Made by a program: the position numbers and the translations under genes
The notes under the pieces: generated by a model
What the model was told of the DNA's origin: nothing
Database searches by the model: none
The model's input: the letters and a program-made list of their open reading frames with translations, nothing else
Shown here: positions 11,186-54,626 of the stretch, piece after piece
How positions within the stretch are numbered: position 1 is the first letter of the stretch
Layout of the letters: every line of letters begins with the position of its first letter
DNA from: Syntrophomonadales bacterium
GTDB lineage: Bacteria > Bacillota > Syntrophomonadia > Syntrophomonadales > DTU052
DNA: 64,000 bases
Reading direction: 5' to 3'
Assembly: GCA_050951725.1 (NCBI GenBank)
Contig: JBMNJO010000012.1
Location: 355,548 to 419,547 of the forward strand

Positions 11186-11187
11186 AA

Positions 11188-20891: not shown

Positions 20892-20970
20892 GGTTTGCAC
20901 CTCCTGCATAAAATTCAGCCCGGCGGATAGCCGGGCTTATGAATTCTATGAAAAATGAATCTCCATAAAT

Positions 20971-35657: not shown

Positions 35658-35680
35658 GCGTTAACGAGGGGAGGGATAAC

Positions 35681-36730: not shown

Positions 36731-36767
36731 CCGCACATTCTGTTAAAGATGCGAAGGAGTGAGAAAT

Positions 36768-37596: not shown

Positions 37597-37639
37597 TTGA
37601 AACCCACGAAAGGGCGCGATTAGGAGAAAGGGGAAAACG

Positions 37640-38924: not shown

Positions 38925-38956
38925 CGAAATAGGGGCTCAATAAGAAGAACCACCCG

Positions 38957-38990
38957 GAAGTGTGCAAGAACATTGCACACTTCTTTCATT
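38957..38990 (+). terminator. rho-independent terminator separating the early and late modules
   Basis: 11-bp stem GAAGTGTGCAA / TTGCACACTTC with a 5-nt loop, followed by TTTCATT. Confidence 0.6.
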
Positions 38991-39036
38991 GTGGAGCCAG
39001 AATCTTATTAATAGAGTTTAGGTGAGGGGTGAGGAA

Positions 39037-39192
39037 ATGATTTACAGGGTTTTCACTCCCGAGGGTTTTTTCGAGGTTTTACAGCAACTAACCTACGGAG
39101 ACATGATCATCGCGGGAATTCTGATTATCATCTTAGCGGTTGTAACGTTTAAGGTGATTTACGATATAGCAGACCGGGAGGGATTTATCTGA
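39037..39192 (+). CDS. small single-pass membrane protein (51 aa), absent from ORF track
   Basis: Hand translation MIYRVFTPEGFFEVLQQLTYGDMIIAGILIIILAVVTFKVIYDIADREGFI. GAGGGGTGAGG lies upstream. Confidence 0.5.
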   Translation: MIYRVFTPEGFFEVLQQLTYGDMIIAGILIIILAVVTFKVIYDIADREGFI

Positions 39193-39305
39193 TGTGGGAT
39201 TCCTTTAATCTGCACTCATTAGTGGCCATTTACGCGGCTGTGATTCTGATGCCGATCTCGATAGCCTATTTTATTCAGCGCATAGCAGGTTGGTGGATGA
39301 GATGA
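39192..39305 (+). CDS. small membrane protein (37 aa), absent from ORF track
   Basis: MWDSFNLHSLVAIYAAVILMPISIAYFIQRIAGWWMR. The ATG overlaps the previous TGA (ATGA-type coupling). Confidence 0.4.
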   Translation: MWDSFNLHSLVAIYAAVILMPISIAYFIQRIAGWWMR

Positions 39306-39424
39306 TAGATAATTTCGGGTACTGTGTGATGTGGTTTCTGAGCTATCCTTTACTGATTTGGGCCGTTGCCCTGACTTGCTTATCACTGGCAATCCTAACC
39401 GCCTTTTTAACTCTGGTTAGGTAG
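39302..39424 (+). CDS. small membrane protein (40 aa), absent from ORF track
   Basis: MIDNFGYCVMWFLSYPLLIWAVALTCLSLAILTAFLTLVR. It overlaps the previous stop. Confidence 0.4.
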   Translation: MIDNFGYCVMWFLSYPLLIWAVALTCLSLAILTAFLTLVR

Positions 39425-39439
39425 AGGAGGGGGATTTGA

Positions 39440-39595
39440 ATGTCCTTCAACGTTGATATGGTCGAGGTATACCAACAGTTTGCCAACGTTTTCGGCTCAC
39501 TGACTCCACTATTGTGGCCGTTTATCGGGGTGTTACTGGCCTTGTTTGTTTTTGGGGGTCTGATTACGATTTTCAAGCATTACGCACAGAGGTAG
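39440..39595 (+). CDS. coat-protein-like small membrane protein (51 aa), absent from ORF track
   Basis: MSFNVDMVEVYQQFANVFGSLTPLLWPFIGVLLALFVFGGLITIFKHYAQR. GAGGAGGGGG RBS. Acidic N-terminus, TM helix and basic tail. Confidence 0.55.
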   Translation: MSFNVDMVEVYQQFANVFGSLTPLLWPFIGVLLALFVFGGLITIFKHYAQR

Positions 39596-39598
39596 GCC

Positions 39599-39760
39599 AT
39601 GCCGCATATTACGCTTGATTACAATATCGATTACCTGTACCAGGTCATAGTGGACATCATCTATTCGCTCTGGCCGATCATAGCGGCAGCATTAGGGATA
39701 GCGATGGCGGGATTTCTGCTCTACGCAATCGTACGAGCTTTTAGACAGTGGGTTGATTGA
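39599..39760 (+). CDS. coat-protein-like small membrane protein (53 aa), absent from ORF track
   Basis: MPHITLDYNIDYLYQVIVDIIYSLWPIIAAALGIAMAGFLLYAIVRAFRQWVD. It starts 3 nt after the previous stop. Confidence 0.5.
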   Translation: MPHITLDYNIDYLYQVIVDIIYSLWPIIAAALGIAMAGFLLYAIVRAFRQWVD

Positions 39761-39816
39761 TTGTTTTAGGTACCAAATACCTTAAACATAACCTGAACGC
39801 AAAGGAGGTGAAGTAG

Positions 39817-39963
39817 TTGAGTCTGAACATCATTCCAACCGATGTTATCGGTTACCTGGTTGACGTTTTTGGCGCTCTGTGGCCGATCCTGGCTCTCGGG
39901 TTGGGTATCGCTGCTGTGCCCAAACTCATCGGCTCTACCAAGGCCGTTTTTTCCCGGAGATAA
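39817..39963 (+). CDS. coat-protein-like small membrane protein, paralog A (48 aa), absent from ORF track
   Basis: TTG follows AAAGGAGGTG. MSLNIIPTDVIGYLVDVFGALWPILALGLGIAAVPKLIGSTKAVFSRR, with 39/47 residues identical to paralog B. Confidence 0.65.
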   Translation: MSLNIIPTDVIGYLVDVFGALWPILALGLGIAAVPKLIGSTKAVFSRR

Positions 39964-40183
39964 TTCGGGGTACGACCGCCGTGTAAATGGTATGGAAGGA
40001 GGTGAAACGGGACCACTCGGCAAACCGAATGCTGGTGCAGCGACACCTTCACTACCAGAATTATACGGCGGTCGGAACCGGTTATCCGCTAACGCCAGAC
40101 GGCTGATCACCTACGAACCCGATTAACGTCCTTGCCAGTTGGTGGGGGCGATTGGGATAAAAAACAAAAAAGGAGGGACCCCT

Positions 40184-40327
40184 GTGAGCTTAAACATTGT
40201 GCCCGCAGAAGTTATTACTTACCTGGTTGACATCTTTGGCGCTCTGTGGCCGATCCTGGCTCTTGGGTTAGGTATCGCGGCTGTACCCAGGCTCATTAGC
40301 TCTGCCAAGGCCGTGTTTTCACGGTAG
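40184..40327 (+). CDS. coat-protein-like small membrane protein, paralog B (47 aa)
   Basis: GTG follows AAAGGAGGGA, within track ORF 40139-40327. MSLNIVPAEVITYLVDIFGALWPILALGLGIAAVPRLISSAKAVFSR. Confidence 0.65.
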   Translation: MSLNIVPAEVITYLVDIFGALWPILALGLGIAAVPRLISSAKAVFSR

Positions 40328-40427
40328 TTGCTAGTTGGGTGGGGACGTTAAATGAAAATGCTTGCATGGGCGCCCTTTGCCTGAGAAGACCGAGGGCGCT
40401 TATGGCAAGAAGAGGTGAAGAATAGCT

Positions 40428-40730
40428 ATGTTTACAACTAATGCGGGTGATGTAATTGGTCAGATGATGTCGGTGATGTCCATATTAGGGCCAATATATG
40501 CCTTCTTTTTTGGCCTAATGGCCCTTCGGGCTCTAATGGACACAGTTGCAAACAAGATATTCCCTAAACCTGTAAAAAAGAAAGCCGCAAAAAGACCCCG
40601 AACGAGAGTTAGATATGACCGTAAGCAATATCCCGGACTCCGAGTCAATTATAACAAGACCGGTTTCACCGTCTCATACTTCGATGATGTAAAAAAGGCT
40701 CAAACCCAGAAATTACGGAAAGCCAAGTAA
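40428..40730 (+). CDS. single-pass membrane protein with a highly basic C-terminal half
   Basis: 100 aa. TM ILGPIYAFFFGLMALRALM followed by KPVKKKAAKRPRTRVRYDRK. GAGGTGA RBS. Confidence 0.55.
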   Translation: MFTTNAGDVIGQMMSVMSILGPIYAFFFGLMALRALMDTVANKIFPKPVKKKAAKRPRTRVRYDRKQYPGLRVNYNKTGFTVSYFDDVKKAQTQKLRKAK

Positions 40731-40744
40731 AGGTGGAATAAACA

Positions 40745-41881
40745 ATGGAGATCGTATTGGTGTTTTACCTTTATCACTTTTTTATATTCCTGCTTAGTTT
40801 AGGGTTTATCAGACACCGGCGCACTCTTAAACAAGGTGACCAAGTGCACCGGCTGGCGGTGGTAATACCGGCTCACAATGAACAGAACGTAATCCGTGAT
40901 TCCGTGCGCTCAATTAAGAACGTTAACTATCCTGCAGAGAGATTTGACGTTTATGTAATCGCTGACAACTGTTCTGATCGGACGGCTGAGTATGCCAAAT
41001 CAGCCGGAGCCAAAGTATTAAAGCGCTTTAATAGAACTTTAGCTGGAAAACAACACGCCTTAAAATGGGCGTTTGGACAGATAAATCTTGATGAATATGA
41101 TGCCGTAGTTATCCTGGATGCTGACAATCATGTAGATCCTGATTTCTTAGGTGTCATGGATGATGAACTATCTAAAGGGAACAAGGTAATTCAAGGATAC
41201 CTGGACGCCAAGAACCCGTGTGAATCATGGGTAACGGCAAACTATGCTTACATGGCCTGGTATGGGTGCAGGCTGCTGATGGCCCGTAAGTTCCTGGGGT
41301 TGTCAGCCTGGCTGGGCGGTACCGGGATGTGTATAAGAACCGATGTGATTCGCCGTGTAGGATGGAACCTCCATACATTGACCGATGATGTTGAGTACAC
41401 CTGCCAGTTACTTATAGCCGGGGAAAAGGTCGCGTTTGCCGAAGATGCTATTGTATACGACCAGAAACCCGCCAAATTAAAGGATTCAATGAGGCAACGT
41501 CTCCGCTGGATGCGCGGCCAGACGCAAACCTGCATCAGATACATACCGCAAATTCTAGTGTCAATGGGTCGGTTCTGGTTAAAGGGCAATCTCGGCCAGG
41601 TCGCCCGGTTGTTCGATGCGCTGATGTGGATCCCCATGCACGTGATGATATTTGCCGCCGTAGCCTTGTCAATTCATCAAGGCTGGTGGCAGTACCTGTT
41701 ATCGGTATTCCTATCTGTACCGGTGTTGTACACCTTACCCATGGCTGCAGACCAGATAAAGAAAAGCCGCGCCTGGGCGTACCTGATAACTGGCGGTGCC
41801 TTTTTCCTAACCTGGATACCGGTTACCGCCTACGGAGTGATCAGCTGCGGAAACAAACAATGGCGGAGAACGCCACACTAA
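40745..41881 (+). CDS. membrane-integrated family-2 glycosyltransferase, processive synthase type
   Basis: VVIPAHNE, the DxD-like ILDADNH, and QRLRWMRGQ (the Q(R/Q)xRW motif of processive beta-glycan synthases). One N-terminal and several C-terminal TM helices. Confidence 0.8.
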   Translation: MEIVLVFYLYHFFIFLLSLGFIRHRRTLKQGDQVHRLAVVIPAHNEQNVIRDSVRSIKNVNYPAERFDVYVIADNCSDRTAEYAKSAGAKVLKRFNRTLAGKQHALKWAFGQINLDEYDAVVILDADNHVDPDFLGVMDDELSKGNKVIQGYLDAKNPCESWVTANYAYMAWYGCRLLMARKFLGLSAWLGGTGMCIRTDVIRRVGWNLHTLTDDVEYTCQLLIAGEKVAFAEDAIVYDQKPAKLKDSMRQRLRWMRGQTQTCIRYIPQILVSMGRFWLKGNLGQVARLFDALMWIPMHVMIFAAVALSIHQGWWQYLLSVFLSVPVLYTLPMAADQIKKSRAWAYLITGGAFFLTWIPVTAYGVISCGNKQWRRTPH

Positions 41882-41888
41882 TAAAGGA

Positions 41889-44276
41889 GTGACGGGGGTT
41901 GTGAGTATTGTCAACAAAGTAAAGAATTCTAGAATCCGGTACCTGCTAGTTGGGGTGCTGGTGGTGGGGCTGGTGTTTGGTGTACTGTCGCTGACCTATG
42001 CCGCGGAGACTGCTCTACACGATGAGGCACCGGGGACGATCATTACATTTTCGGGAAAACAGTGGATAATCCTTGAGCAGATGCCTAATGGGGAGACGTA
42101 TATCTTACTGTACGACAAGGGTAGCGGGATGGCATTTGACCCCGATAAAACCCAGTTGTTTGATCCCTCGGATCCTAACAACATTGCCTATTACCTAAAT
42201 AACGATTTTCTCAACAGTCTGTCGCAAAGGCACTTAATTAGCGAGCATTCCTGGGATCGAGTATCAGTTAATTTTAGCGATAGTCTTGATGGGACTGATT
42301 ATGGAAATGTTACCTGTAGCATTGGCTTAATTAGCTATCGAGAAGCAGAAAAATATTCAACCTACTACCCCATAAACTACTGGGGATGGTGGTGGACTCG
42401 GACTCCTCGTACTGAGAGCTCCGTCACGGTGTGGTGCGTAAATCGGGATGGCAGCATAGGCGGTAGCACTGCCTCCGATACTAACGGGAGAGTCCAGCCC
42501 TCTTTGTATCTTAAATCTAATATCCTAATAGATCATAACAAAGTAGTGGTAGGCAAGGGAATCGTAAACAAGCCGGATACACCAGCGGAGTTGTCAGCCA
42601 ATAATCAATCCTCCAACGAAGTAACTCTAACCTGGCAGGCAAATACGGAAGAAGACCTAGCTGGCTATAGAGTATATCGAGGTACTAGCATGATTGCTGA
42701 GACAGCATCGACCACCTACACCGATGATACTGTACAGCCCGGCATGACATACAGCTACTCCATATCCGCTTACAATACTGATGACCACGAAAGCGATAGG
42801 AGCGCACCGGTTACGGTGACTACTCCACCGGCCACACCAACCGGTTTAAGCGGAAACGCAGTCGAGAGAACGGTTACTCTAACCTGGGAAGGTCCGGGGA
42901 ATCCATGCTATATAGTCCAGCGAAGTTCCAACGGAACTGACTACACCCAAGTGGCCGAAGTCACGGAAGAATCGTTTACCGAGACAAACGACCTATGGGG
43001 GACAACGTACTATTACCGTGTGGCCCAAAAAGGCCAGGATGGGAATATATCAGCATACTCTGAGGCGGTACAGGTTACTACAGAACCGGTACCTGCACCA
43101 ACAGGGTTAATCGCTGCCATGGAGGGTATGAACATAAACCTATCCTGGCAGCCGGTTGACGGAGTAGATACATACATAGTGGAAAAGAGTATTGGCGGAG
43201 AAACCTGGGAGACGATAGCAACGGTTACATCCACCACGTACACAGATACGGTTGAAGATGGCGATATACAATACCTGTACCGTGTAAGGGCGGACGCTGG
43301 AAACCAGGTGTCCGATCCCTCTAATGTTGCGGGGGTTGCACTGCCTCCAAGTCCTCCCGGCAACGCACAGGCTAACGTGGACGGGAAAAATGTAACCCTG
43401 ACTTGGGAAGCGTCAAGTAACGCAGTGGCCTACATAATAGAACGCAGCACGGATGGGATCACTTGGGAACAAATTATAGAGCAGAGCGAGTTAACATATC
43501 AGGAAGCCGCGCCCCGGTGGGATACCAGCTACCAATACCGTGTTAAATCCAAGAACGCAGAGGGACTTATATCTGTTGCATCGGACCCGGTGCAGGTGAC
43601 CACATCCAGCGTACCGATCCCGGAGAACCTGGAGGCCAGTGTAACGGACAATCAAATCACAATCACGTGGGATGAGGCACCAGGAATTAGCCTCTACCGG
43701 ATACAGCGCAGCGATAACAGTATCTTTTGGGATGACCTGGCCGAAGTTGAGGGCACGAGTTACACCGACAGTGACCTCGAATGGGAAGAAAGATACTATT
43801 ACCGGATTAAATCGGTTGATGGCGACCAGGAATCCGATTATACGGCGTTTATAATGGCGCAGACCAAACCCAAACCGGTACCGGTTGCGCCCCGGTTGTC
43901 CTACTCCGTAGATAACACGAATATCGGCTTGGCCTGGAATACCCAGAACGTACCGATCAGTGGATACCGGATATACGTTAATGATGAACTAAAGGACGAA
44001 ATACCCGGTAACGTTAGTAAGTACAGCTTTGCCGGCGAGAGCGGGAAAAGCTACAAAGTAAAAGTAGAAGTCTACAACATATATGGGACTGCGAGCTCCA
44101 CCGTAACCATAAAGGTAGGCACTTTTACCACTCCGGGAGCTGCCAAAATGGTTGGCGATGTAACCACCAATGCCGTTGCGGTATTTGGCTCCCTGGGGGG
44201 ACTGTTGGCGTTGTCATTGGCATTCAAGGGAGCGGGACCGTTGATTGATGCGGCACGTAAGGTTATAGGACTATAA
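41889..44276 (+). CDS. secreted DUF6273-like domain + FN3-array protein with C-terminal membrane anchor
   Basis: 795 aa. Signal peptide, N-terminal domain (FSGKQWIILEQ...WWWTRTP...RVQPSLYLK), a long array of FN3-like repeats (LTW..., Y.Y.V) and C-terminal TM AVAVFGSLGGLLALSLAF. Confidence 0.75.
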   Translation: MTGVVSIVNKVKNSRIRYLLVGVLVVGLVFGVLSLTYAAETALHDEAPGTIITFSGKQWIILEQMPNGETYILLYDKGSGMAFDPDKTQLFDPSDPNNIAYYLNNDFLNSLSQRHLISEHSWDRVSVNFSDSLDGTDYGNVTCSIGLISYREAEKYSTYYPINYWGWWWTRTPRTESSVTVWCVNRDGSIGGSTASDTNGRVQPSLYLKSNILIDHNKVVVGKGIVNKPDTPAELSANNQSSNEVTLTWQANTEEDLAGYRVYRGTSMIAETASTTYTDDTVQPGMTYSYSISAYNTDDHESDRSAPVTVTTPPATPTGLSGNAVERTVTLTWEGPGNPCYIVQRSSNGTDYTQVAEVTEESFTETNDLWGTTYYYRVAQKGQDGNISAYSEAVQVTTEPVPAPTGLIAAMEGMNINLSWQPVDGVDTYIVEKSIGGETWETIATVTSTTYTDTVEDGDIQYLYRVRADAGNQVSDPSNVAGVALPPSPPGNAQANVDGKNVTLTWEASSNAVAYIIERSTDGITWEQIIEQSELTYQEAAPRWDTSYQYRVKSKNAEGLISVASDPVQVTTSSVPIPENLEASVTDNQITITWDEAPGISLYRIQRSDNSIFWDDLAEVEGTSYTDSDLEWEERYYYRIKSVDGDQESDYTAFIMAQTKPKPVPVAPRLSYSVDNTNIGLAWNTQNVPISGYRIYVNDELKDEIPGNVSKYSFAGESGKSYKVKVEVYNIYGTASSTVTIKVGTFTTPGAAKMVGDVTTNAVAVFGSLGGLLALSLAFKGAGPLIDAARKVIGL

Positions 44277-44294
44277 CGGGCCGGGGAGGACGCC

Positions 44295-44921
44295 ATGAAC
44301 ATAAAGGGATTGTTTGTAATAGCAATAGTGGGGGCCGTCCTTATGGGCGGTCCTGTTGCCGTTGGTCAGACCACAATTGATTGCACAAAAGCAATCAAGG
44401 CCGAACCTCGCGAGGTATTATGTGGGCAGTTAGTCAGACCTATCAATACGAAAGTGGATATAAAAACCCGGACGATTAACCCCTTTTGGACTCTTCCACG
44501 CACAGCCTCAAGTAACCAAAAACTTAGCATAAACCGATCCCTGCCGGTTAAGGTGCGCGATCTTATAGACGCAACCTCGGAGAAATTGAAACTTGACCCG
44601 GCGTTGGTCCGGGCTGTGGCTATGGCCGAATCAAGCGGAAACCAGGGAGCGGTGTCCCGGGTTGGAGCAGTAGGCGTTATGCAATTAATGCCTGGCACTG
44701 CCCGAGGCCTGGGAGTTAATCCCTACGATTTGGAGCAGAACATTCTCGGGGGAGCTATGTATTTAAGACGGCAATTGGACAAATACCAAGGGAATATCCA
44801 ACTTGCCCTGGCGGCCTATAACGCGGGACCAGGGGCGGTTGATAAGTACCAGGGAGTCCCGCCTTTTCAGGAGACCCGTGAGTACATTGCCCGGGTGATA
44901 AACGCAATGGGGAGGGTTTAG
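44295..44921 (+). CDS. lytic transglycosylase (SLT domain), secreted
   Basis: [28 protein letters not shown] and [10 protein letters not shown] are SLT motifs, preceded by an N-terminal signal. Confidence 0.85.
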
Positions 44922-44922
44922 T

Positions 44923-45957
44923 GTGAGATCGATTTTGTCATTCCTGCTGAGTGCAGTATTTCTCATGATTATGGTGCCCATAGCTTTAGCTGAGGAACCG
45001 ACCGAGCCGGTGCTGATACCGCCTTCCTCTCCCAGCCAGGTAACAGTATCTGGGATACAGGAAACCAGGGCAACGGTATCATGGTCACCGGTTCCTACGG
45101 CCACACAGTACACCGTGTGGGTTGACGGTCAGCGGTGGTCTGGCAGCAACCATCCCGGGGTTGATATCACCGGATTGCAGCCTTATATGGAGTATACCGT
45201 GCATGTTACCGCTGCCAACGATGCAGGGGAAAGTTCGTCATCTCCGACAGTGATGTTTACAACACTTCCCCCGGTACCGAGCGCACCGGAACGACCGGTA
45301 GTAACTGAGGTAACGGATACAAAGGCGACAATTGAGTGGCAGCCACTCCCGGTATGGCAATACATACAGTGCTACAGGATTTATGTTGACGGTCAGGCTG
45401 TAGCTGACATTGAACCGTCCGAGGGGATACAGGCGGCAGAACTGACCAACCTGGAGGCCGGGGTGCATTATGTGACCGTATCCGGGATTAATGAGAACCA
45501 GGAAAGTCCCACTTCCAGACCAGCGAAGTTTACGGTCCAAGCAATCCCAGCACCAACGGGCTTACTTGTTGCCAACCGCAGCCACGACCAGGTTTTGCTA
45601 ACCTGGGATGAAGTCCCGGGGGCCGACCGATATATGGTCCAATTGGACGGGAACCTGGTTGGAGAATCCAAGGAAAACTCCTATTTTCTCGGAGGGTTGA
45701 CCGGGGAAACCAATTACCAGGTGAGCGTTTACGCCGTATTGAGCGATGGAAACGAATCAGCGAACGCTAACCTTGATATACAAACACCGTCACCGGCAGC
45801 AGAATTAACCCTAGACACAGTAATATCCTCAGCCTATGAATACATACCGGATGTGATGCCGGGAATAGTAGTCATATTTGTAATTGGCGCAGCTTTGAAA
45901 ATAGCGCGTGCCGGAAAGTTCTCGATTGGTCGGCAGTTCGTTTTTAGGAGGTTTTAG
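44923..45957 (+). CDS. secreted three-FN3 protein with C-terminal membrane anchor
   Basis: 344 aa. Signal peptide, three FN3-like units and C-terminal TM PGIVVIFVIGAALKIA followed by a basic tail. Confidence 0.7.
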   Translation: MRSILSFLLSAVFLMIMVPIALAEEPTEPVLIPPSSPSQVTVSGIQETRATVSWSPVPTATQYTVWVDGQRWSGSNHPGVDITGLQPYMEYTVHVTAANDAGESSSSPTVMFTTLPPVPSAPERPVVTEVTDTKATIEWQPLPVWQYIQCYRIYVDGQAVADIEPSEGIQAAELTNLEAGVHYVTVSGINENQESPTSRPAKFTVQAIPAPTGLLVANRSHDQVLLTWDEVPGADRYMVQLDGNLVGESKENSYFLGGLTGETNYQVSVYAVLSDGNESANANLDIQTPSPAAELTLDTVISSAYEYIPDVMPGIVVIFVIGAALKIARAGKFSIGRQFVFRRF

Positions 45958-45959
45958 GT

Positions 45960-47225
45960 TTGTTGAGAAATAGGATTATCAGAGCCAATATTCTGCTAAT
46001 TCTAATGGTTGTCTTCGTTTTGTCACCGCATGAAATTGCTAAAGCGGATATATGGAATTATGACTATACCGTGGAGGCATATGGATATTACCCTAATGAA
46101 TCGGCGTTCTCTTATCCATTTATAACAGCTGACACACAACATCGACTTGGACGGGAAATATCAGTGGTGAGATTATCATGGGAGATAAAGGCTGGGGACA
46201 CCATACAAATGTTGTTTTATGACAAAAACGCTGTTGAGATGGCACCGGTAAAAGTAACCTCAAGTAGCTTGAGTGCCAGGAAGTTTGCAGTCACAGCTCC
46301 TAAAGGAGCTTGTACCGGCCAGGTGGAACTAATGGCTGGAAATGATACTGGCAGTAGACAAGTCTGGATAAAAGAATTTGATGCGACAAGTTACGGTGAT
46401 TATTGGGGGACAGCCATTTTTGCCGACCCAGAGATCATAGAAGATCCTCCAGATCCACCAGACCCCCCGGATCCGCCAGACCCCCCGGATCCACCTCTAT
46501 ATGATCCAGGAGACCCAGCTGGGGGGGCCGACTTAATAAACGAAATGCGGTCGATACGAGGCGCAATAAATGGCCTAAGTGAGGGGGTAGTAACTGGATT
46601 TCAAGGCGTAAGTAATCAACTTGCTACTTTGACCACGGATATAAATGAACAGTTTGATGAGGTAAAAAGTAAGTTAGATACCATTTCTACGGACGTTGAT
46701 GTCATTAAATCAGATGTCGGAGTCATCAAAGGTGACGTGGCGGCGATGAAAGACTATTTCACAACGCCACGTTCACCCTCCCCCTTACAAGTAAATACAC
46801 TACCGCAACCGACCATGGACAGTACCGTGCCTGATTTAACCGAACCATATCAGAATCCATATACCTACGACCGTGGGGAACCCACGTATCCACCCGCAGC
46901 ATTCGGGCCAGAACCGTTGCCGTTCGCGCCCGATCCCCAGGTGATGCCGCACGATGACCCACTGATAGCGGAAACACCGCAGCAATTAGATCCACCGGTT
47001 ACACGGGAAGACCCGCGCCCTACAGACCCGGTCATTAAAGAAGAACCGCGTCAGATGGACCCGGTGAACATGGACCCACCTCGGGACAAGGATGAGCCCA
47101 TAGCGAGACAAAACCCTTTTGGCAAAGAGACGCCAATAACACCTAAAAACCCATTGACGCCTCAAACACCAATAAACCGGACAACTCCATTAACGCCGCA
47201 ACCGCCGCGTACACCGGGAGGATAG
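45960..47225 (+). CDS. membrane-anchored or secreted protein with (PPD)n linker, coiled segment and Pro-rich C-terminus
   Basis: 421 aa. N-terminal TM/signal, DPPDPPDPPDPPDPPDPP at about 46441-46500, TDINEQFDEVKSKLDTISTDVDVIKSDVGVIKGDV, then a P-rich tail. Confidence 0.6.
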   Translation: MLRNRIIRANILLILMVVFVLSPHEIAKADIWNYDYTVEAYGYYPNESAFSYPFITADTQHRLGREISVVRLSWEIKAGDTIQMLFYDKNAVEMAPVKVTSSSLSARKFAVTAPKGACTGQVELMAGNDTGSRQVWIKEFDATSYGDYWGTAIFADPEIIEDPPDPPDPPDPPDPPDPPLYDPGDPAGGADLINEMRSIRGAINGLSEGVVTGFQGVSNQLATLTTDINEQFDEVKSKLDTISTDVDVIKSDVGVIKGDVAAMKDYFTTPRSPSPLQVNTLPQPTMDSTVPDLTEPYQNPYTYDRGEPTYPPAAFGPEPLPFAPDPQVMPHDDPLIAETPQQLDPPVTREDPRPTDPVIKEEPRQMDPVNMDPPRDKDEPIARQNPFGKETPITPKNPLTPQTPINRTTPLTPQPPRTPGG

Positions 47226-47236
47226 GGGGATAAGCC

Positions 47237-47689
47237 ATGTATGAGTTCTTTCAAGGCCTATTCCAGAATGGCATAAATGCACTGCATGTGTTTTTCACAT
47301 GGATAGGATTGCTGCTAGAGAGCTTCTTCGGAGCACTTAAAACTGTTCTTATTACCTTATTTCAGCCGGTCGTTGCCTTCTTTCTGGGTATAGCCTACCT
47401 TTTGTCAAAATGCTTTTATATAGCGGTTTTGGTTGTCCAAGTGATCTTTGGGATATTTAAGGTCGTGCTGGGCGTGATCATGGGGGTGTTTAATACCTTT
47501 GCCCAGCTGCTGGGATTCAGTGGTAGCACCGATTACTATTACCTGCCGACTGCCTATCAACCAGGATGGAGTGCGGTGACTGATGTGCTTAACAGTACCG
47601 GAGTCCATACGATTGCAATACTTATGACCGTTTTTGTCTGGCTGATTACGGCCTACGCTGTCATACGTATAGCAGGGGGTGAACGCTAA
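47237..47689 (+). CDS. polytopic membrane protein (about 4 TM)
   Basis: 150 aa, hydrophobic throughout. Confidence 0.55.
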   Translation: MYEFFQGLFQNGINALHVFFTWIGLLLESFFGALKTVLITLFQPVVAFFLGIAYLLSKCFYIAVLVVQVIFGIFKVVLGVIMGVFNTFAQLLGFSGSTDYYYLPTAYQPGWSAVTDVLNSTGVHTIAILMTVFVWLITAYAVIRIAGGER

Positions 47690-47955
47690 TGTTTCAGCGC
47701 ATTATTGACACTGTATTTGACCCGATAATACAGATCTTGATATCAGCTAGGGACCACCTGGATACTGCCGCACTGGTAGCCGCACAGGGCCTGAACCTGG
47801 ATTATTTCTTAGGACCAATTGCCATGATGGGTTGGCAGTGGCAGGCGTTGGTAACCAGCGTGGTAGCCAGCGCGTTTTTATTATTGAGTATCTTAGTGGC
47901 CCGTAAAGGGTATGGTCTCTATTTGGCTTTAAAGGAAGGTGTTAAGTGGTGGTAA
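47689..47955 (+). CDS. membrane protein (2 TM)
   Basis: 88 aa. The ATG overlaps the previous TAA. Confidence 0.5.
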   Translation: MFQRIIDTVFDPIIQILISARDHLDTAALVAAQGLNLDYFLGPIAMMGWQWQALVTSVVASAFLLLSILVARKGYGLYLALKEGVKWW

Positions 47956-50273
47956 GGAAGATACGGCGATACATAAAGGGAATTGAGATAAGGATGCCGT
48001 CTAAACCGTTACTGCTGGCAGGGTTGATAGGCACTCTATTGTTCGGATTTATGTCACTGGCGCAAGCGCAGACTCCATTGCAAAACGTTGCACCGGGGAC
48101 GGTTATTACTTTTAGTGGCAAGCAATGGATCGTCCTTGAGCACAAGGCAAATGGGGAAACTCTCATTCTTTTAAAAGGTTTTCTCACCTCGCAAAGAGCA
48201 TTTGACGAAGACAGAACGAACCGTTTTGACCCAACGGATTCAAACAATATTGCATACTACTTGAATAATAGTTATTACAATTCTCTGGGACAAAAAAACC
48301 TAATAAGTGAGCACACCTGGGATTTGGGACATCACGGAAGTCTTGCATGTAAAGTTGGTCTGCTGTCAGTGGATGAATACATAAGTTACAGCACGGTCTA
48401 TTCCGGGAGTGTATTGCCCTACAATCACTCGGACCGCCAATGGTGGCTTATAACGCCATATTCTCAAAGTTCGCCGACTGAAGATTTTATATATATAGTC
48501 GATGATTGGACTGAAGGGCATTGGAGTAGCAGCAATGCTGACTACTCATATGCTTATGTCAGGCCAGCTATATATCTACAATCCGGGTTAGTTTTGGGCC
48601 AGGACAATACGGTGGAAGAGGGGACAACTCCCCCCCAGGTACCAGCCGGCTTGTCAGCGGTTGCAACTTCGCCAACCTCAGTAGACCTGAACTGGCAGGC
48701 CAACACGGAAACGGATCTGGCGGGATATAAAATCTTTCGGAATGGGGTTGAGATAGCAACCGTTGGAAAAGTTACCTCGTGGACGGATAGCGGCGTATCA
48801 CCGGGCACCACTTACACCTATGAACTGGTGGCCTACAATACATCCGGCCAGGATAGTGGACGAAGCAACCAGGCGACTGTAACCACACCATCCGGGGGTG
48901 GTGGCGATAGTATGTTACATGACAAAGCCCCGGGCACGATTATTAGGTTTAGTGGCCAGGAATGGATTATCCTAGAGCAGATGGAAAACGGTGAGACGTA
49001 TCTCATTTTAAAAGAACCCGACTGTCAAAGGGCGTTTGACCCCGACCAAATTGGTCTGTTTGCGCCAAATGATTCGAATAATATAGCTTATTACTTGAAT
49101 AATACTTTTCACAATAGTCTTAGCCAAAAGGAATTCATCAGCGAACACTCATGGGATCGTGTTTCATACGATCTTTATGGAAATGTAGGCACTGACCATG
49201 GGAGTGTGAACTGTAAAGTAGGACTCATAAGCTATACTGAATACAAGGAGTATAGCACCTACTATGATGGAAACGTCCTCCCGAGTAGTTATAGTTACTG
49301 GTGGTGGACTCGTTCGCCCAGAACGGAATATTCGTATACTGCTTGGGAGGTTGATGCTACTGGCAATCTGGGCGATACCAATACCGCCAATGCCAGCGGT
49401 AGTGTACGCCCGACTATATACCTCCAGGCGGGATTGTCATTGGATGAGAACGGCAATGTGGTGGATGGCACTCCTGGTATCCCCCCAGCAGCGCCCATTG
49501 GTTTGTCCGCAGTCGCAACCTCCCCGACCTCAGTAAACCTGACCTGGCAGGCCAACACCGAGCAGGATCTAGCCGGGTATAAAATATACCGGAATGGGGT
49601 TGTGATAGAAACCGTTGGAAAATTAAGCTCATGGACTGACAATACCGCATCCCCGGGCACCACTTACACCTATGAGTTGGTGGCCTATAACACTTCCGGC
49701 CAGGATAGCCAGCGAAGCAACCCGGCGACTGTAACAACGCCGAACCTGCCCACACCCACACAGTTAGGGGTTGTCTGGAAAGGAAACTATGTTGAGGTGT
49801 CCTGGGAAGCAGGAGACACCCAACTCGGTAGCCAGGCGGTACTTTGGAGACAAATGGACAATGGCCCATGGACGCCAATCAAAACCCTAACCAATGCGGA
49901 AAAGACCGGATTTACATATAACGACAGGAATGTGAGCGTAGGATTAAACTGCCGGTATGAGATCCGGGAATGTGGTATAGACAATTACTATCGCTGGACT
50001 GTAGCCGCAGAATCGGGCTGGGCAACGGGTGACAGGCCAATAAAAGCCCCTGCAGGTCTGCGTATAGCATCAGTGGACGATAACGCCGCAGTGATAACCT
50101 GGAATCCTATAATCAGCGTAAGTAGCTATATGGTGCAGTACAGCGTAAACGGCCAGGATTGGCAAGCTGGGACAGCATCCGGCACCAGCGCAAATGTGCC
50201 TCGACCGTCACGGGTCAGGGTGAAGGCCGAAGGCTCATATAGCCACTGGAGTGGAGTCCTTACTGTCAGGTAG
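47946..50273 (+). CDS. secreted protein with two DUF6273-like + FN3 modules and further FN3-like units
   Basis: 775 aa. Signal peptide, two copies of a (FSGKQWI.LE...WW..P...RP.IYLQ domain + FN3) module, with 68/81 residues identical between the two FN3 units. No C-terminal TM. Confidence 0.75.
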   Translation: MVVRKIRRYIKGIEIRMPSKPLLLAGLIGTLLFGFMSLAQAQTPLQNVAPGTVITFSGKQWIVLEHKANGETLILLKGFLTSQRAFDEDRTNRFDPTDSNNIAYYLNNSYYNSLGQKNLISEHTWDLGHHGSLACKVGLLSVDEYISYSTVYSGSVLPYNHSDRQWWLITPYSQSSPTEDFIYIVDDWTEGHWSSSNADYSYAYVRPAIYLQSGLVLGQDNTVEEGTTPPQVPAGLSAVATSPTSVDLNWQANTETDLAGYKIFRNGVEIATVGKVTSWTDSGVSPGTTYTYELVAYNTSGQDSGRSNQATVTTPSGGGGDSMLHDKAPGTIIRFSGQEWIILEQMENGETYLILKEPDCQRAFDPDQIGLFAPNDSNNIAYYLNNTFHNSLSQKEFISEHSWDRVSYDLYGNVGTDHGSVNCKVGLISYTEYKEYSTYYDGNVLPSSYSYWWWTRSPRTEYSYTAWEVDATGNLGDTNTANASGSVRPTIYLQAGLSLDENGNVVDGTPGIPPAAPIGLSAVATSPTSVNLTWQANTEQDLAGYKIYRNGVVIETVGKLSSWTDNTASPGTTYTYELVAYNTSGQDSQRSNPATVTTPNLPTPTQLGVVWKGNYVEVSWEAGDTQLGSQAVLWRQMDNGPWTPIKTLTNAEKTGFTYNDRNVSVGLNCRYEIRECGIDNYYRWTVAAESGWATGDRPIKAPAGLRIASVDDNAAVITWNPIISVSSYMVQYSVNGQDWQAGTASGTSANVPRPSRVRVKAEGSYSHWSGVLTVR

Positions 50274-50280
50274 TTACAAG

Positions 50281-50309
50281 CCCCGTCTTTCGACGAAAGA
50301 CGGGTTTTT
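50281..50309 (+). terminator. rho-independent terminator
   Basis: CCCGTCTTTCG / CGAAAGACGGG stem followed by TTTTT, immediately after the 775-aa gene. Confidence 0.7.
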
Positions 50310-50338
50310 CTGTGCATGAATATTGCACATAACATTCA

Positions 50339-50629
50339 TTGTGCGAAGTCTCTGACCGGCCAATAATTAACATGGAGGTGAGCGAATTGCCAAGAACATC
50401 GTTGTCAAATTGGGAACCGCTCATGAATACCTTGATGGGACTGTTCATGTTCGTTGGATGCGCGACATCTTCAAAGGGTGACCAAATCTATCTATATAAG
50501 CATATCTGGACCCGTCGATATCTCAACCTGGACGGCAAAGGACAGGCATATCAATATACGGATGGCAGTTACCAACCTGTTCAGATGTTGGATGCCTTAT
50601 CTTATGTATTTTCGAAAATGGAGGGATGA
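50339..50629 (+). CDS. hypothetical protein (start uncertain)
   Basis: 96-aa ORF. An internal MNTLMGLFMFVGC could be a lipobox-type start. Confidence 0.3.
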   Translation: MCEVSDRPIINMEVSELPRTSLSNWEPLMNTLMGLFMFVGCATSSKGDQIYLYKHIWTRRYLNLDGKGQAYQYTDGSYQPVQMLDALSYVFSKMEG

Positions 50630-50631
50630 TC

Positions 50632-50751
50632 ATGGTATTTGAGTTCTTTTTTGGCGCTGCTGCCGGTATCAGTTTGGGGGTAGCGATAGTGGTGATACCT
50701 TGTCTACTGCTTTATAACCGGGTAGTGGCCGGGCGAAGGGGGAGACAGTAA
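50632..50751 (+). CDS. small single-pass membrane protein (39 aa), absent from ORF track
   Basis: MVFEFFFGAAAGISLGVAIVVIPCLLLYNRVVAGRRGRQ. GGAGGGA RBS. The stop overlaps the next ATG. Confidence 0.45.
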   Translation: MVFEFFFGAAAGISLGVAIVVIPCLLLYNRVVAGRRGRQ

Positions 50752-51098
50752 TGTTTTTCAAAAAGAAGAATCTATCACCCGATGTGGTGATACTTATAAA
50801 CGAACGCGAAATCCGGGAATTGCCCGTGGACGATGAAAACGAGGAAGCTATATCGGCAGGTGGGCTATCTCTCCCGAAAGCGGATGCCGAGGTAAGATAC
50901 TTTCCCTCCGGTGGCCGCGCATTTATCTATGGCTGCACACCTGCCTATCTGGCCGAATGTGAAAACGTTGCCCGGCTCGAACAGTCCACGGTCCTGCGAA
51001 ACCTCTTTGACTACGGCGCAACGGGAAAGACCGCTAATATCCAATTCTATGTAATGATGGCGGTCCTAATTATAACGATATTCCTCCTGAGGGGGTGA
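50751..51098 (+). CDS. hypothetical protein with C-terminal TM helix
   Basis: 115 aa, C-terminal IQFYVMMAVLIITIFLL. Confidence 0.45.
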   Translation: MFFKKKNLSPDVVILINEREIRELPVDDENEEAISAGGLSLPKADAEVRYFPSGGRAFIYGCTPAYLAECENVARLEQSTVLRNLFDYGATGKTANIQFYVMMAVLIITIFLLRG

Positions 51099-51102
51099 GA
51101 AG

Positions 51103-51447
51103 ATGGCAGATCCACAACAACCGCAACAAAAATCGATACAGGACATAATGAGTGGGGAACTCTTCGCCAGCTCCCGCAGTGATATGGTAGAGACCCTTAA
51201 ATTCATGGAAAAGCACGGAACCCCGCTGTCAGAGAGACAGGTCGCAGCCGTGGGCCTCCTGAGGGTGCTACAAAAAAAGCGGAATAACAAGGTATATGAA
51301 CCAATAATCCAAGCCATGTCTGATATGTCAAAAGAGATCACACCTCCGGGCCTCTTCGTGGACGTGATCGAGAAGATGACCCTAGGGGGATTCGTGACTG
51401 GCAAGGTCCGAATGTCTAAGCTATTTGGGAACGGGGGCGACAGGTAA
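51103..51447 (+). CDS. hypothetical protein
   Basis: 114 aa. GAGGGGGTGAG RBS. The stop overlaps the ATPase start. Confidence 0.45.
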   Translation: MADPQQPQQKSIQDIMSGELFASSRSDMVETLKFMEKHGTPLSERQVAAVGLLRVLQKKRNNKVYEPIIQAMSDMSKEITPPGLFVDVIEKMTLGGFVTGKVRMSKLFGNGGDR

Positions 51448-52097
51448 TGTACGTGTGGGTATTTCAAGGCAACCTGGGCGAAGGTAAGACCTTTGGCATG
51501 TGCGTCCTGGGTTGGCACTTCGTGGCGAAAGCCCGAAAGCAGGGCATTAACGCCGATATTTACGCCAATTTTGACCTCCTGGGAGCTAAACCCCTGCATA
51601 GTTACCGGGACTTCTACCATGTTGCGAAGTCCGATGCCTCTATATGCCTGATGGACGAAGCCCACATAAACCTGGATAGCCGCCTGTTTGCCCGAGGCTC
51701 TAATATCTATATGACCCAGTTCATGTTCTATCTGCGAAAGCTTAACACCAGTCTTTTTATGACCACCCCAAACATCCGGAACCTAGACTCCAGGATGAGG
51801 CAACTCACAAACATTCTCGTGGACTGCCATAAAATCGCCGGCGGATTCATGTACGAGATATATGACTTCCAGTCAGAACGTCTACTCCGGAAGAAATTCC
51901 TCCCGAGGTATATCGCTGAACAGATCTTCGCTACCGGCATGTATGATTCCCATGCAATAATCAGGGCGGTAAACTTCCCCTCGAATGAACGGGCGTTTGA
52001 ACGCTTCCTGGATACGATTGTTGAGATCAGAGAAGGGGGAACCGCCCCCCTGGAGGATGAGGATGTACTCGAAGGGAAGGAAGCCCGAGCTCGTTAG
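51447..52097 (+). CDS. Zot/pI-like P-loop NTPase
   Basis: Walker A GNLGEGKT at the extreme N-terminus, Walker B ICLMDEAH, then FYLRKLNTSLFMTTPNIRNLDSRMRQL, matching the Zot-domain layout (HRH-like, then Q...ID..IR). No TM segment. Confidence 0.55.
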   Translation: MYVWVFQGNLGEGKTFGMCVLGWHFVAKARKQGINADIYANFDLLGAKPLHSYRDFYHVAKSDASICLMDEAHINLDSRLFARGSNIYMTQFMFYLRKLNTSLFMTTPNIRNLDSRMRQLTNILVDCHKIAGGFMYEIYDFQSERLLRKKFLPRYIAEQIFATGMYDSHAIIRAVNFPSNERAFERFLDTIVEIREGGTAPLEDEDVLEGKEARAR

Positions 52098-52110
52098 AAG
52101 GGAGGGCCCT

Positions 52111-52326
52111 ATGGAATACCGACCGCATGTTAACACGAATATTGGGCCAGGCCGGCTTTTTCGCATTGATGGGAACATGGCACATGTAGAATTTGATTAC
52201 ATGTACCTAGTAGAGATCCCCATAACCGATGTTGACCTGGATGGAATTGATCCGGACATGATCGAGGGAGGTGTCAATACTAATGAAGCGCTGGACAGAG
52301 GAAAAGATGATAGAAAAGGCGGTTGA
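52111..52326 (+). CDS. hypothetical protein
   Basis: 71 aa from ATG 52111, after AAGGGAGGG. Confidence 0.4.
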   Translation: MEYRPHVNTNIGPGRLFRIDGNMAHVEFDYMYLVEIPITDVDLDGIDPDMIEGGVNTNEALDRGKDDRKGG

Positions 52327-52747
52327 CACAGTGTTTGAGTACGCCCAGAAGCCCGCCAACCCCTATTCATACCTATATCACAACCCTCGGGCAATTCATA
52401 CGCCGCAATACTTCGCCCACTGGACCCAGAAATGGCAGAACCACCGGGTATATATGACCTTGGTACGGGCCGCAAAGGTGACAGGCTACGAACCGGTACC
52501 CTCTATCCTGCTCCACCGTAACGCGAAAAGGGACGGTTATGGAGATAGGTCGGTACAGGTGGGCCAACTCGCATTCTATTTGATAAAGCCAGAAGAAATG
52601 AGTCCGGCACTCAGAAGGCGGTACTATGCCTTCAAGGATATGCTTTTTGATGATATCAGGCAAAATATCCGGGACCATTACGAGGGAAAAGAGAAGGAAA
52701 AGGCGCTCAGATTGTTTTCGGACGATGCGCCTAACACTGGCGCGTAA
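52283..52747 (+). CDS. hypothetical protein
   Basis: 154 aa from ATG 52283, after GAGGGAGG. Confidence 0.4.
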   Translation: MKRWTEEKMIEKAVDTVFEYAQKPANPYSYLYHNPRAIHTPQYFAHWTQKWQNHRVYMTLVRAAKVTGYEPVPSILLHRNAKRDGYGDRSVQVGQLAFYLIKPEEMSPALRRRYYAFKDMLFDDIRQNIRDHYEGKEKEKALRLFSDDAPNTGA

Positions 52748-52909: not shown

Positions 52910-53305
52910 TTGTTTTGTGCCTTTCTGTCGGGATCAGCACAATTCAATTGTATTGATGGGCGTCTCTTTTTTCAAAGATCGTTCTTAAGGATTACAGGAA
53001 TGCTCCTTCAAAATATAGACATGTTCCCGCCGGAGTCATTTTTGATAGCTGCCACAAATCACGGCCACTTATTGGATTCAGCCATATGGAGACGTTTTAC
53101 AACGGTAAATATGGACTTACCAGGCCCCGAGGAAAGGCGAAGATTGATACATTACTACAAAAAGGGCCTACCTATCGATATACATATAGCCGACTGGGTT
53201 GATAAGACCGATGGCATGAGCGGGGCTCAAATAAAGACCAAGCTCCACAATGAAGCCAAGAAACAGATTCTTTGTTTAGAAAAGACAAAGCTACAGTTGG
53301 TTTAA
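52910..53305 (+). pseudogene. AAA+ ATPase C-terminal fragment (Walker A/B missing)
   Basis: LIAATNHGHLLDSAIWRRFTTVNMDLPGPEERRRL carries sensor-1, the Arg finger and a lid. No P-loop exists upstream in any frame that I could join. Confidence 0.5.
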
Positions 53306-54587: not shown

Positions 54588-54626
54588 TCTCCTGCCTAAA
54601 GGTACGAACAGAAGGAGTTGACGAAA

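Follow-up and report, generated by a model that had tools for sequence, protein, structure and literature searches.

The stretch of DNA analysed here (the window) comprises 64,000 nucleotides of contig JBMNJO010000012.1 (positions 355,548 to 419,547, forward strand) from the Syntrophomonadales bacterium assembly GCA_050951725.1. It contains a putative temperate element of 35.8 kb, at approximately 19.31-55.08 kb, in which an early region is followed by a block of genes at 38.96-52.75 kb, referred to as the late block. An initial annotation had read this block as an expanded morphogenesis module of the kind found in filamentous phages (inoviruses), joined to lambda-like lysogeny, replication and DNA-modification genes.

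The sizeable open reading frames (ORFs) of the late block are all located on the + strand and are separated by small gaps or overlap, which agrees with the one-stranded and tightly packed arrangement described at the outset. The terminator proposed ahead of the block was recovered in part: a hairpin is present, yet it matches a terminator only modestly. A far stronger terminator, located between the genes for the 775- and 41-amino-acid (aa) proteins, splits the late block into two operons. The features of the block and of the remaining element are listed in Table 1.

Table 1. Features of the late block, followed by those of the early region and of the two ends of the element (positions in the window; TM, transmembrane; a dot marks a feature without strand).
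Feature	Positions	Strand	Basis or remark
Hairpin, modest terminator-like, ahead of late block	38956-38984	+	
s1, 51-aa single-pass membrane protein	39037-39192	+	DNA reading, hydropathy, synteny; conserved across family
s2, 37-aa single-pass membrane ORF	39192-39305	+	DNA reading, hydropathy
s2b, 40-aa single-pass membrane ORF	39302-39424	+	ATGA overlap with s2
s3, 51-aa coat-like protein	39440-39595	+	Acidic N-terminus, TM segment, basic C-terminus
s4, 53-aa coat-like paralog	39599-39760	+	
s5, 48-aa coat-like protein	39817-39963	+	Strong ribosome-binding site; +4 C-terminal flank; homologs in 24 loci including pHT11
s6, 47-aa duplicate of s5	40184-40327	+	83% identical to s5
s7, 100 aa, coat-like N-terminal TM segment	40428-40730	+	+17 basic tail
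GT2, membrane glycosyltransferase of EpsU / PgaC / NodC type, 378 aa	40745-41881	+	Kept in most relatives
795-aa protein	41889-44276	+	Signal peptide, DUF6273, FN3 array, C-terminal TM anchor
SLT lytic transglycosylase, secreted, 208 aa	44295-44921	+	
344-aa protein	44923-45957	+	Signal peptide, three FN3 domains, C-terminal TM anchor
421-aa secreted protein	45960-47225	+	Beta domain, PDPP repeats, coiled coil, Pro-rich tail; conserved down to pHT11
150-aa 4-TM core protein	47237-47689	+	Found in 24 loci
88-aa membrane core protein	47689-47955	+	Best conserved of the small proteins
775-aa secreted protein	47946-50273	+	Two DUF6273 domains and FN3
Strong intrinsic terminator	50282-50304	+	10-bp stem, T-run; between the two late operons
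41-aa single-pass membrane ORF	50626-50751	+	
115-aa core protein	50751-51098	+	Soluble N-domain, C-terminal TM; found in 32 loci
114-aa soluble all-helical core protein	51103-51447	+	Translationally coupled to ATPase; helical fold from model
Zot-like P-loop ATPase, 216 aa	51447-52097	+	Walker A GNLGEGKT, Walker B ICLMDEA, TM-less
158-aa conserved protein downstream of ATPase	52271-52747	+	
16-nt inverted repeat, left copy (CCGCCCGAAACAGGTT)	19310-19325	.	Candidate attP-derived half-site inside left junction
Intact tRNA-Val(GAC) at left end	19338-19412	+	Abuts recombinase stop codon
Large serine recombinase (integrase)	19413-20909	-	Pfam: Resolvase, Recombinase, Zn_ribbon_recom; position as in MCACPph1
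CI-like repressor	23210-23887	-	Pfam: HTH_3, Peptidase_S24
Replication initiator or helicase loader, DnaD / phage O type	32367-33086	+	PHROG replisome organizer, DnaD-like matches
Small regulator	35343-35657	+	phrog_36 match
Tyrosine recombinase	53332-54162	+	Syntenic in most relatives
HicA/HicB toxin-antitoxin pair, right end	54405-55034	+	Homologs in L005 and L006 carry HicA_toxin and HicB Pfam families
16-nt inverted repeat, right copy	55061-55076	.	Followed by tRNA 3'-end-like fragment (55078-55108)

The eight small ORFs that open the late block had been described as single-pass membrane proteins, and reading of the DNA together with a hydropathy scan gave the same result: each (37-100 aa) carries one strong hydrophobic segment. 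Single-TM proteins of 30-90 aa are a feature by which inoviruses are recognized, and size, topology and charge are what suggests a coat function for the ORFs found here. In seven of the eight the segment has an acidic N-terminal and a basic C-terminal flank, hence insertion into the membrane with the N-terminus outside and the C-terminus inside would be expected. The duplicates s5 and s6 are each preceded by a strong ribosome-binding site, and similarity scores, which are unreliable for TM segments, suggest that five of the eight (s3, s4, s5, s6 and, through its N-terminus, s7) are paralogs. The best candidate for a major coat protein is s5, and s7 is a candidate membrane-anchored DNA binder.

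Membership of the small ORFs in inovirus coat families was not substantiated. PHROG scans (E up to 5) of the eight small proteins and of the 41-, 88- and 150-aa proteins detected no coat, holin or SSV1-VP1 family, and neither a pIII nor a pVI family was detected in PHROG; the parallel drawn before with the g7/g9/g8-g3-g6-g1 order of Ff phages therefore holds as an analogy only. The core proteins found no match in NCBIfam.

Among the larger products, the 795-aa protein carries the signal peptide and the C-terminal TM segment that had been reported for it and is a candidate adsorption or surface protein. The amount of FN3-array protein, put earlier at about 1,900 aa, was counted as 1,914 aa, and Pfam and NCBIfam scans recovered both the GT2 synthase and the SLT transglycosylase inside the module. 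Two descriptions had to be amended: of the FN3 proteins described as anchored or secreted, the 344-aa one has a C-terminal TM segment, but the 775-aa one is secreted and has no anchor; and the 150-aa protein has its four TM segments, but the 88-aa protein, taken for a 2-TM protein, shows one strong and one weak hydrophobic segment. The position of the 775-aa protein may be a swappable distal module for a variable second protein of receptor-binding type, as would be expected of a receptor-binding protein. Kelch beta-propeller proteins of similar size replace it in two related loci (L005, 6100-8424; L008, 6808-8865).

The 216-aa P-loop NTPase near the end of the block had been assigned to the Zot/pI type. 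Its kinship with the Zot-like family stands, but the TM anchor that defines pI is absent. In the profile search proposed for 51447-52097, Zot (PF05707) was the only Pfam family matched, at 19.2 bits against a threshold of 20.3 bits (E 9e-4), so that the window protein taken alone falls just below threshold. Zot was matched by 33 of the 34 aligned homologs (best E 1.5e-6), and no FtsK/HerA family ranked above it. One relative, 36% identical to the window protein, matched the PHROG families 'Zot-like toxin' (4.7e-7) and 'protein I of M13'. An exhaustive search with the ATPase profile gave 947 clusters at E <= 1e-3, and the 150 listed were all short, mostly 160-270 aa. Against PDB sequences the family profile gave P-loop noise only (SRP54 at E 0.2), and in GenBank phages the matches outside the family were exclusively archaeal: Muninn virus (E 6e-8) and ORF1 of the Halorubrum spindle-shaped virus BLv25. 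Megablast of the entire late block against GenBank phages gave no match.

An AlphaFold2 (AF2) model of the ATPase, of moderate confidence (predicted local distance difference test score, pLDDT, 64), found the N-domain of Zot (2R2A) as its top PDB match (E 1.5e-6) and the packaging ATPase B204 of STIV as the second (E about 5e-5, TM-score about 0.5). Among viral folds the model matched AMDV2_16 of an uncultured virus first, and short 'Zot' proteins of uncultured Inoviridae were among the top matches. The hydropathy threshold for a TM segment was never reached and the protein stops after the ATPase domain; it therefore lacks the anchor that Roux et al. (2019) required of pI. A separate protein of 115 aa with a C-terminal TM segment is encoded two genes upstream and is a candidate membrane tether for the ATPase. 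For the 114-aa partner the AF2 model (pLDDT 58) predicts an all-helical fold with no significant Foldseek match in PDB; on this model an OB-fold or a jelly-roll was rejected. The ATPase belongs to the Zot/pI neighbourhood of the FtsK-HerA superfamily, and this placement does not tell a filament from a spindle or an icosahedron.

Pfam and PHROG scans covered about 45 ORFs of the 19.4-55.1 kb region, a few early-region ORFs of less than 85 aa being left out. None of these matched a terminase, portal, capsid, tape-measure or tail family, which upholds the earlier statement that tailed-phage structural genes are lacking; PHROG matches named 'tail' or 'Hoc' were confined to FN3 repeats or to the SLT domain. 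The proteins by which Caudoviricetes are defined (terminase large subunit, portal, HK97-fold capsid, tail proteins) were thus not found. As for a rolling-circle initiator, there was no Rep_trans or Phage_CRI match, no tblastn match in the window to the Rep of the Bacillus replicon pHT11, and no homolog of that Rep in any other fetched locus. An integrative and conjugative element was considered and rejected: the element scans contained no VirB4, VirD4 or relaxase family of a type IV secretion system, and the sole ATPase has 216 aa.

Besides the genes of Table 1, the early region encodes an Mrr nuclease, two insertion sequence (IS) transposases, an HD protein, a C5 methyltransferase, a DUF5131 protein, an MmcB-like nuclease, a PAPS-reductase-like protein and a radical-SAM protein (Pfam/PHROG). 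The small regulator adjoins s1 in three relatives (L015, L016, L021), and since it lies directly upstream of the first small ORF in relatives it is a candidate late activator; its homolog in the Moorella phage MCACPph1 has weak matches to Sigma70 region 4. The DNA-modification set (C5 methyltransferase, DUF5131, PAPS-reductase-like and radical-SAM proteins) occupies 28367-31370 and 35618-38632. Compared with MCACPph1, which lacks them, the PAPS-reductase-like and radical-SAM genes and the segment 36759-37596 are inserted between the late regulator and s1. Insertions of DDE transposases (IS) were found at 25946-27349 and 33320-35032 (- strand), and an AAA-lid gene fragment (52910-53305) lies between the gene for the 158-aa protein and the tyrosine recombinase.

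The two inverted repeats would suit the half-sites of a serine-integrase attP and bound the 35.8-kb element. tRNA-like fragments occur just outside both copies: a degenerate tRNA-Val-like 5' fragment on the left (19247-19300) and a tRNA 3'-end-like piece (T-arm, CCA) on the right (55078-55108). They may be remnants of earlier integrations. A single tRNA split between the two fragments was rejected, as the acceptor stems do not pair; of the putative att features, the 16-nt inverted repeat alone is firm. Outside the left end, two tandem polysaccharide deacetylases are encoded at 17341-18867 (-); in the closest relative (L013), 69%-identical deacetylases occur at 12719-14101, beyond the tyrosine-recombinase end and inverted. 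They could represent a shared integration neighbourhood or a cargo with a functional tie to the PgaC-like GT2.

The element is a single unit. The initial annotation had joined the late block to a lambda-like lysogeny module, and the join proved real. MCACPph1 (OR602863.1, 19,989 bp), the nearest relative that bears a name, has 23 genes in common with the window element, in the same order and from both halves: the shared run comprises the serine recombinase, Mrr, CI, the regulator, the entire late block and the tyrosine recombinase. In addition, contig L006 carries the ATPase, tyrosine integrase, HicAB, serine recombinase and repressor in succession, that is, the equivalents of the two ends of the window element (55.0 and 19.4 kb) joined to each other.

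MCACPph1 was described as the only active region of M. carbonis ACPs, its DNA having been sequenced from culture supernatant that was filtered, treated with DNase and RNase and ultracentrifuged; the prophage of the same strain called 'intact' by PHASTEST is not the active region (Boer et al. 2024, PMC11328732). A close relative of the window element was thus exported in a DNase-protected form. The genomic libraries were made with Nextera XT, which needs dsDNA (double-stranded DNA), and the phage was placed in the Caudovirales because Pharokka had labelled genes as 'central tail fiber J' and 'Hoc-like head decoration' (PMC11328732). In OR602863.1 (L027) the features so labelled, 'Hoc-like head decoration' at 10694-12520 and 'central tail fiber J' at 13162-14187, are artefacts of FN3 domains, and the assignment of MCACPph1 to the Caudovirales is a misassignment that follows from these annotations.

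Homologs were found in Syntrophomonadaceae, Syntrophothermus, Moorellaceae, Thermoanaerobacter, Desulforamulus, Desulfosporosinus, Desulfoscipio and Peptococcaceae, the late gene order being identical in all these relatives. The ATPase is strictly syntenic with the core in 36 of 36 loci. On a contig of 12,837 bp (L029) the five-gene core is accompanied only by small TM ORFs, two large proteins, a small resolvase and a few other small ORFs; the 30-bp terminal overlap of this contig, seen in no other locus, indicates that it is circular.

Sixty 'plasmids' of Bacillus, Paenibacillus and related genera, of about 11-25 kb, encode an ATPase that is 37-39% identical to that of the window. With iterative profile searches, eleven window proteins could be linked to ORFs of L035 and L036 that follow the same order (E-values from 1e-12 to 1e-78). 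In pHT11 (NC_020250.1, B. thuringiensis HD73) the colinear homologs of eleven window proteins are those of s1, s3-s5, the 421-aa, FN3, 4-TM, 88-aa, 115-aa and 114-aa proteins and the ATPase; the 41-aa protein also finds a same-order ORF in pHT11 / pSCSIO05746. The late block is, as judged from sequence, homologous to and colinear with these Bacillus replicons over at least ten genes, and not merely analogous to an inovirus module. pHT11 itself carries a rolling-circle initiator (Rep_trans / Rol_Rep_N / Phage_CRI).

The text of Roux et al. (2019) describes the 'Densinoviridae' as a candidate inovirus family, found mainly in Bacilli and Chloroflexi, that includes former 'cryptic plasmids' of Bacilli, and cites the HD73 and CT-43 genomes. 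The pHT11 group appears to belong to this family, as read from that text and its reference list rather than from a membership table. IMG/VR contains a 5-kb fragment of a Syntrophothermus relative, and the genome of this relative is cited in the supplement of Roux et al. (2019).

These findings lead us to propose, with a probability of about 0.6, that one temperate, tailless, virus-like element extends over approximately 19.31-55.08 kb and that the late block is its module for particle formation. The element is probably an unrecognized kind of tailless, likely dsDNA phage of Gram-positive anaerobes, and its module is homologous to that of small rolling-circle replicons which seem to have been proposed, though never shown, to be inoviruses.

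The functional roles and the non-lytic exit described in what follows are those we infer for its genes. The CI-like repressor would keep the element silent until the large serine recombinase excises it as a circle, which would replicate as dsDNA through the RepO/DnaD-type initiator. The small regulator, resembling sigma region 4, would switch on the two late operons. The proteins of 37-100 aa would then enter the cytoplasmic membrane, their N-terminus facing outward and their basic C-terminus inward. A membrane platform formed by the 115-aa C-anchored, 150-aa 4-TM and 88-aa proteins would be the docking site for the Zot-like ATPase, which is soluble, and for the 114-aa partner coupled to it; the ATPase would drive the DNA into a growing particle whose coat is made of the small proteins. 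The particle would leave by extrusion or budding, not by lysis, with the secreted SLT opening the peptidoglycan locally, and the C-anchored FN3 / DUF6273 proteins would end up on the particle as adsorption proteins. The conserved GT2 might modify glycans of the surface, make a sheath for the particle or serve to exclude superinfection. Indirect evidence favours dsDNA as the packaged form: it consists of the missing rolling-circle Rep and of the tagmentation libraries of the Moorella study, neither of which is conclusive.

Several observations weigh against this proposal. No particle of the family has been imaged and no virion protein identified; the DNase protection in the Moorella experiment could stem from membrane vesicles. 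The small proteins matched no coat family in the PHROG scans, and the pairwise E-values among them may be inflated by the composition of their TM segments. The ATPase lacks the membrane anchor of pI and matches STIV B204 and archaeal spindle-virus ATPases nearly as well as Zot, therefore the ATPase alone does not indicate extrusion; confidence in the AF2 models is moderate to low, for the ATPase as well as for the 114-aa protein. GT2, FN3 adhesins, SLT and the neighbouring deacetylases would also fit a cell-surface system. Finally, the two IS insertions and the gene fragment imply that this particular copy may be inactive or partly decayed.

Four other explanations were weighed. The particle could be a spindle-shaped or pleomorphic enveloped one released by budding, a bacterial counterpart of the His1 or pleolipovirus type; this differs from the proposed model in particle shape only and we regard it as unlikely. 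It would account for the archaeal origin of the best virus matches of the ATPase outside the family, for the identical order and topology of five genes in Muninn virus (4-TM, multi-TM, C-anchored, soluble, ATPase) and for the C-anchored, spike-like proteins, and pleolipoviruses use one virion type for both single-stranded DNA (ssDNA) and dsDNA genomes. However, hhalign of the 4-TM, 88-, 115- and 114-aa families against their Muninn counterparts and against the major capsid protein (MCP) of the Halorubrum spindle virus gave probabilities below 1%, and no two-helix capsid protein of the His1 / SSV1 type was recognized among the 88- and 150-aa families in these comparisons. The single-TM proteins of 40-55 aa with acidic N-terminus and basic C-terminus follow the coat pattern of inoviruses. 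Walled bacteria are not known to release enveloped viruses by budding.

Slightly less likely still, the element could be a satellite or island without a particle of its own, the late block being a lysogenic-conversion system for the cell surface or matrix and transfer depending on a helper phage or on vesicles. A recognizable capsid is indeed missing; the functions of the EpsU / PgaC-type GT2, the FN3 adhesin-like proteins and the SLT are typical of a cell surface; two polysaccharide deacetylase genes border the element, as they do in L013; and DNase protection by itself is no proof of a dedicated virion. A system serving the host is nevertheless hard to reconcile with a core that fills most of the 12.8-kb circular contig and of the 11.8-kb pHT11, and the ATPase kept in strict synteny with this core in all 36 loci belongs to a DNA-pump family. 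The particle fraction of M. carbonis was enriched in the 20-kb element only, with no helper co-enriched.

An icosahedral virus with an internal membrane (PRD1 / STIV or sphaerolipovirus type), having a divergent jelly-roll capsid, the ATPase for packaging and small TM proteins comparable to P20 and P22 of PRD1, we consider very unlikely. An ATPase with a soluble partner and small TM proteins resembles the packaging vertex of PRD1, B204 was the second-best structural match of the ATPase model and A32-like packaging ATPases were among its viral fold matches; the text of Roux et al. (2019) also reports that some STIV-like ATPase clusters were removed as false inoviruses. Yet Zot ranks above B204 by sequence as well as by fold, and no candidate was found for a capsid protein, which would be cytoplasmic: all conserved late proteins of more than 220 aa have a signal peptide or an anchor, the core proteins of the cytoplasm are of small size, with an all-helical fold predicted for that of 114 aa, and apart from Rep every cytoplasmic ORF of more than 140 aa in pHT11 (11.8 kb) is assigned.

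That two adjacent elements are present, namely an ssDNA inovirus prophage with its own tyrosine recombinase (38.9-54.2 kb) and a defective lambda-like prophage (19.4-38.9 kb), is hardly credible: at about 15 kb the first would not exceed the size of an inovirus, autonomous replicons of 11-15 kb with a rolling-circle Rep carry relatives of the module, and the IS elements lie in the early half, but the late half has neither Rep nor any other replication gene, the experimentally defined MCACPph1 covers both halves in 20 kb, the same late block recurs in 14 genome loci and several metagenome contigs with the regulator abutting s1 where visible, L006 joins the HicAB end to the serine-recombinase end, and the inverted repeats bracket the entire 35.8 kb.

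Returning to the proposed tailless element, a wider hypothesis, to which we give rather less than an even chance, would have one membrane-assembly module package ssDNA in pHT11-type replicons and 20-36 kb dsDNA in theta-replicating temperate relatives, namely the window element and MCACPph1. Such elements would form a Bacillota-wide, non-lytic dsDNA lineage, 'giant inovirus-like' or pleomorphic, with parallels in the Dehalococcoides element IME1 and the archaeal pleolipo- and spindle viruses, and with an ancient five-gene ATPase core shared with an Asgard archaeal virus.

Further observations concern the distribution of the module. In a distant branch of 69% GC (L030/L031) the core is kept and a GT2 gene stands directly after the ATPase, before a tyrosine integrase, indicating that the association with GT2 extends well beyond the low-GC Bacillota members. 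In L004 (3272-5964) the serine recombinase at the end of the element is followed by a 375-aa PrkA ORF, DUF444 and SpoVR. PrkA is normally longer than 375 aa. The arrangement suggests that this element is inserted into or next to the sporulation gene prkA, like intervening elements of the skin or SPbeta type. The module is also complete in assemblies labelled archaeal, namely L034 (Salarchaeum sp. III) and L025/L026, the latter from a contig of a Thermoplasmatales metagenome-assembled genome (JAVYSX010000006.1) that contains two copies about 20 kb apart. Salarchaeum sp. III was rejected as a host, L034 being probably a bacterial contaminant (38% GC, non-acidic cytoplasmic proteins), and the apparent archaeal hosts, Salarchaeum and Thermoplasmatales, are doubtful.

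To our knowledge, all characterized filamentous phages package a small ssDNA genome made by rolling-circle replication, and a non-lytic dsDNA virus without a tail has not, as far as we know, been established among walled Gram-positive bacteria. The window element and its relatives in Syntrophomonadaceae, Moorellaceae, Desulfotomaculia and Peptococcaceae join an assembly module of inovirus type to a complete lysogeny and replication module of dsDNA-phage type. In the literature this Bacillota lineage is so far represented only by a short 'inovirus' fragment, by Bacillus 'plasmids' and by a misassigned 'tailed' Moorella phage; from its text and supplement, Roux et al. (2019) appears to have captured it only as the 5-kb 'inovirus' fragment. 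The proposal can be tested now: the 20-kb relative MCACPph1 is released spontaneously by Neomoorella carbonis DSM 116161, a cultured strain. The link between the ATPase and archaeal spindle-virus genes bears on the kinship of extrusion and budding viruses in bacteria and archaea.

Compared with the classical inoviruses (Ff, Pf3, CTXphi), the window element has the same short single-TM proteins with acidic N-terminus and basic C-terminus, which like those of Pf3 lack a signal peptide, a large secreted protein with a C-terminal anchor, a small multi-TM protein and a Zot-domain ATPase, and no lysis cassette. Inovirus pI has a TM anchor and a periplasmic domain; the window ATPase has neither. Inovirus genomes are defined by a rolling-circle Rep and circular ssDNA of about 5-15 kb, whereas the window, in which no rolling-circle Rep and no ssDNA-binding protein were found, has a RepO/DnaD-like initiator and an element of 35.8 kb, a genome 3-6 times larger. 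Because that Rep is lacking and the replication genes are of dsDNA-phage type, an ssDNA filament is not implied. GT2, SLT and FN3 arrays are not inovirus genes.

The Bacillus replicons of 11-15 kb such as pHT11 share with the window the short, TM-less Zot-like ATPase (38% identity). Unlike the window, with its dsDNA-phage-type replication and lysogeny genes, they have a rolling-circle initiator and no integrase or repressor; the window element is three times larger than pHT11, from which GT2 and SLT are absent. MCACPph1 is temperate and carries both recombinases, the repressor, the regulator, small TM ORFs, GT2, FN3 proteins, SLT, the core membrane proteins and an ATPase of 71% identity, its counterpart of the 344-aa protein being the one annotated 'central tail fiber J'. 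It measures 20 kb against 35.8 kb, the window adding two IS, the DNA-modification cluster, a second large DUF6273 protein, HicAB and tRNA-Val. As to replication, a helicase loader resembling G39P is encoded by MCACPph1 and a phage-O-like protein by a compact relative.

ATPases of the STIV B204 / PRD1 P9 type resemble that of the window in size (about 205-230 aa) and in lacking a TM segment; unlike the double jelly-roll viruses to which they belong, the window contains no jelly-roll capsid candidate that could be found. In Muninn virus (OM716000.1, L032, about 8230-10134) an unannotated ORF encodes a homologous ATPase with the Walker A motif VIGNIRTGKT. It is preceded by genes for a 4-TM protein of 152 aa, a multi-TM protein of 87 aa, a C-anchored protein of 124 aa and a soluble protein of 107 aa, which are the sizes, topologies and order of the window core; sequence similarity is found in the ATPase alone and does not explain the shared order. 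The archaeal spindle viruses differ from the window by a His1-type two-helix capsid protein, by a protein-primed polymerase in Muninn and by their archaeal hosts.

Dehalococcoides IME1 comprises integrated or episomal dsDNA elements of 21-28 kb without tailed-phage genes, in which a pI-like ATPase stands beside small TM proteins, secreted adhesin-like proteins, a lambda-like repressor and tyrosine and serine recombinases (Nesbo et al. 2026 preprint, 10.64898/2026.09.15.751708). According to these authors, the lineage is so far restricted to Chloroflexota, dominates viral fractions that also contain filaments and is proposed to consist of dsDNA budding, probably filamentous viruses (10.64898/2026.09.15.751708). 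Its TM genes lie downstream of the ATPase and it replicates by a primase-helicase, unlike the window element. The likeness between the two, set side by side here by description, is architectural only, and in this sense IME1 is the closest concept to the element described here.

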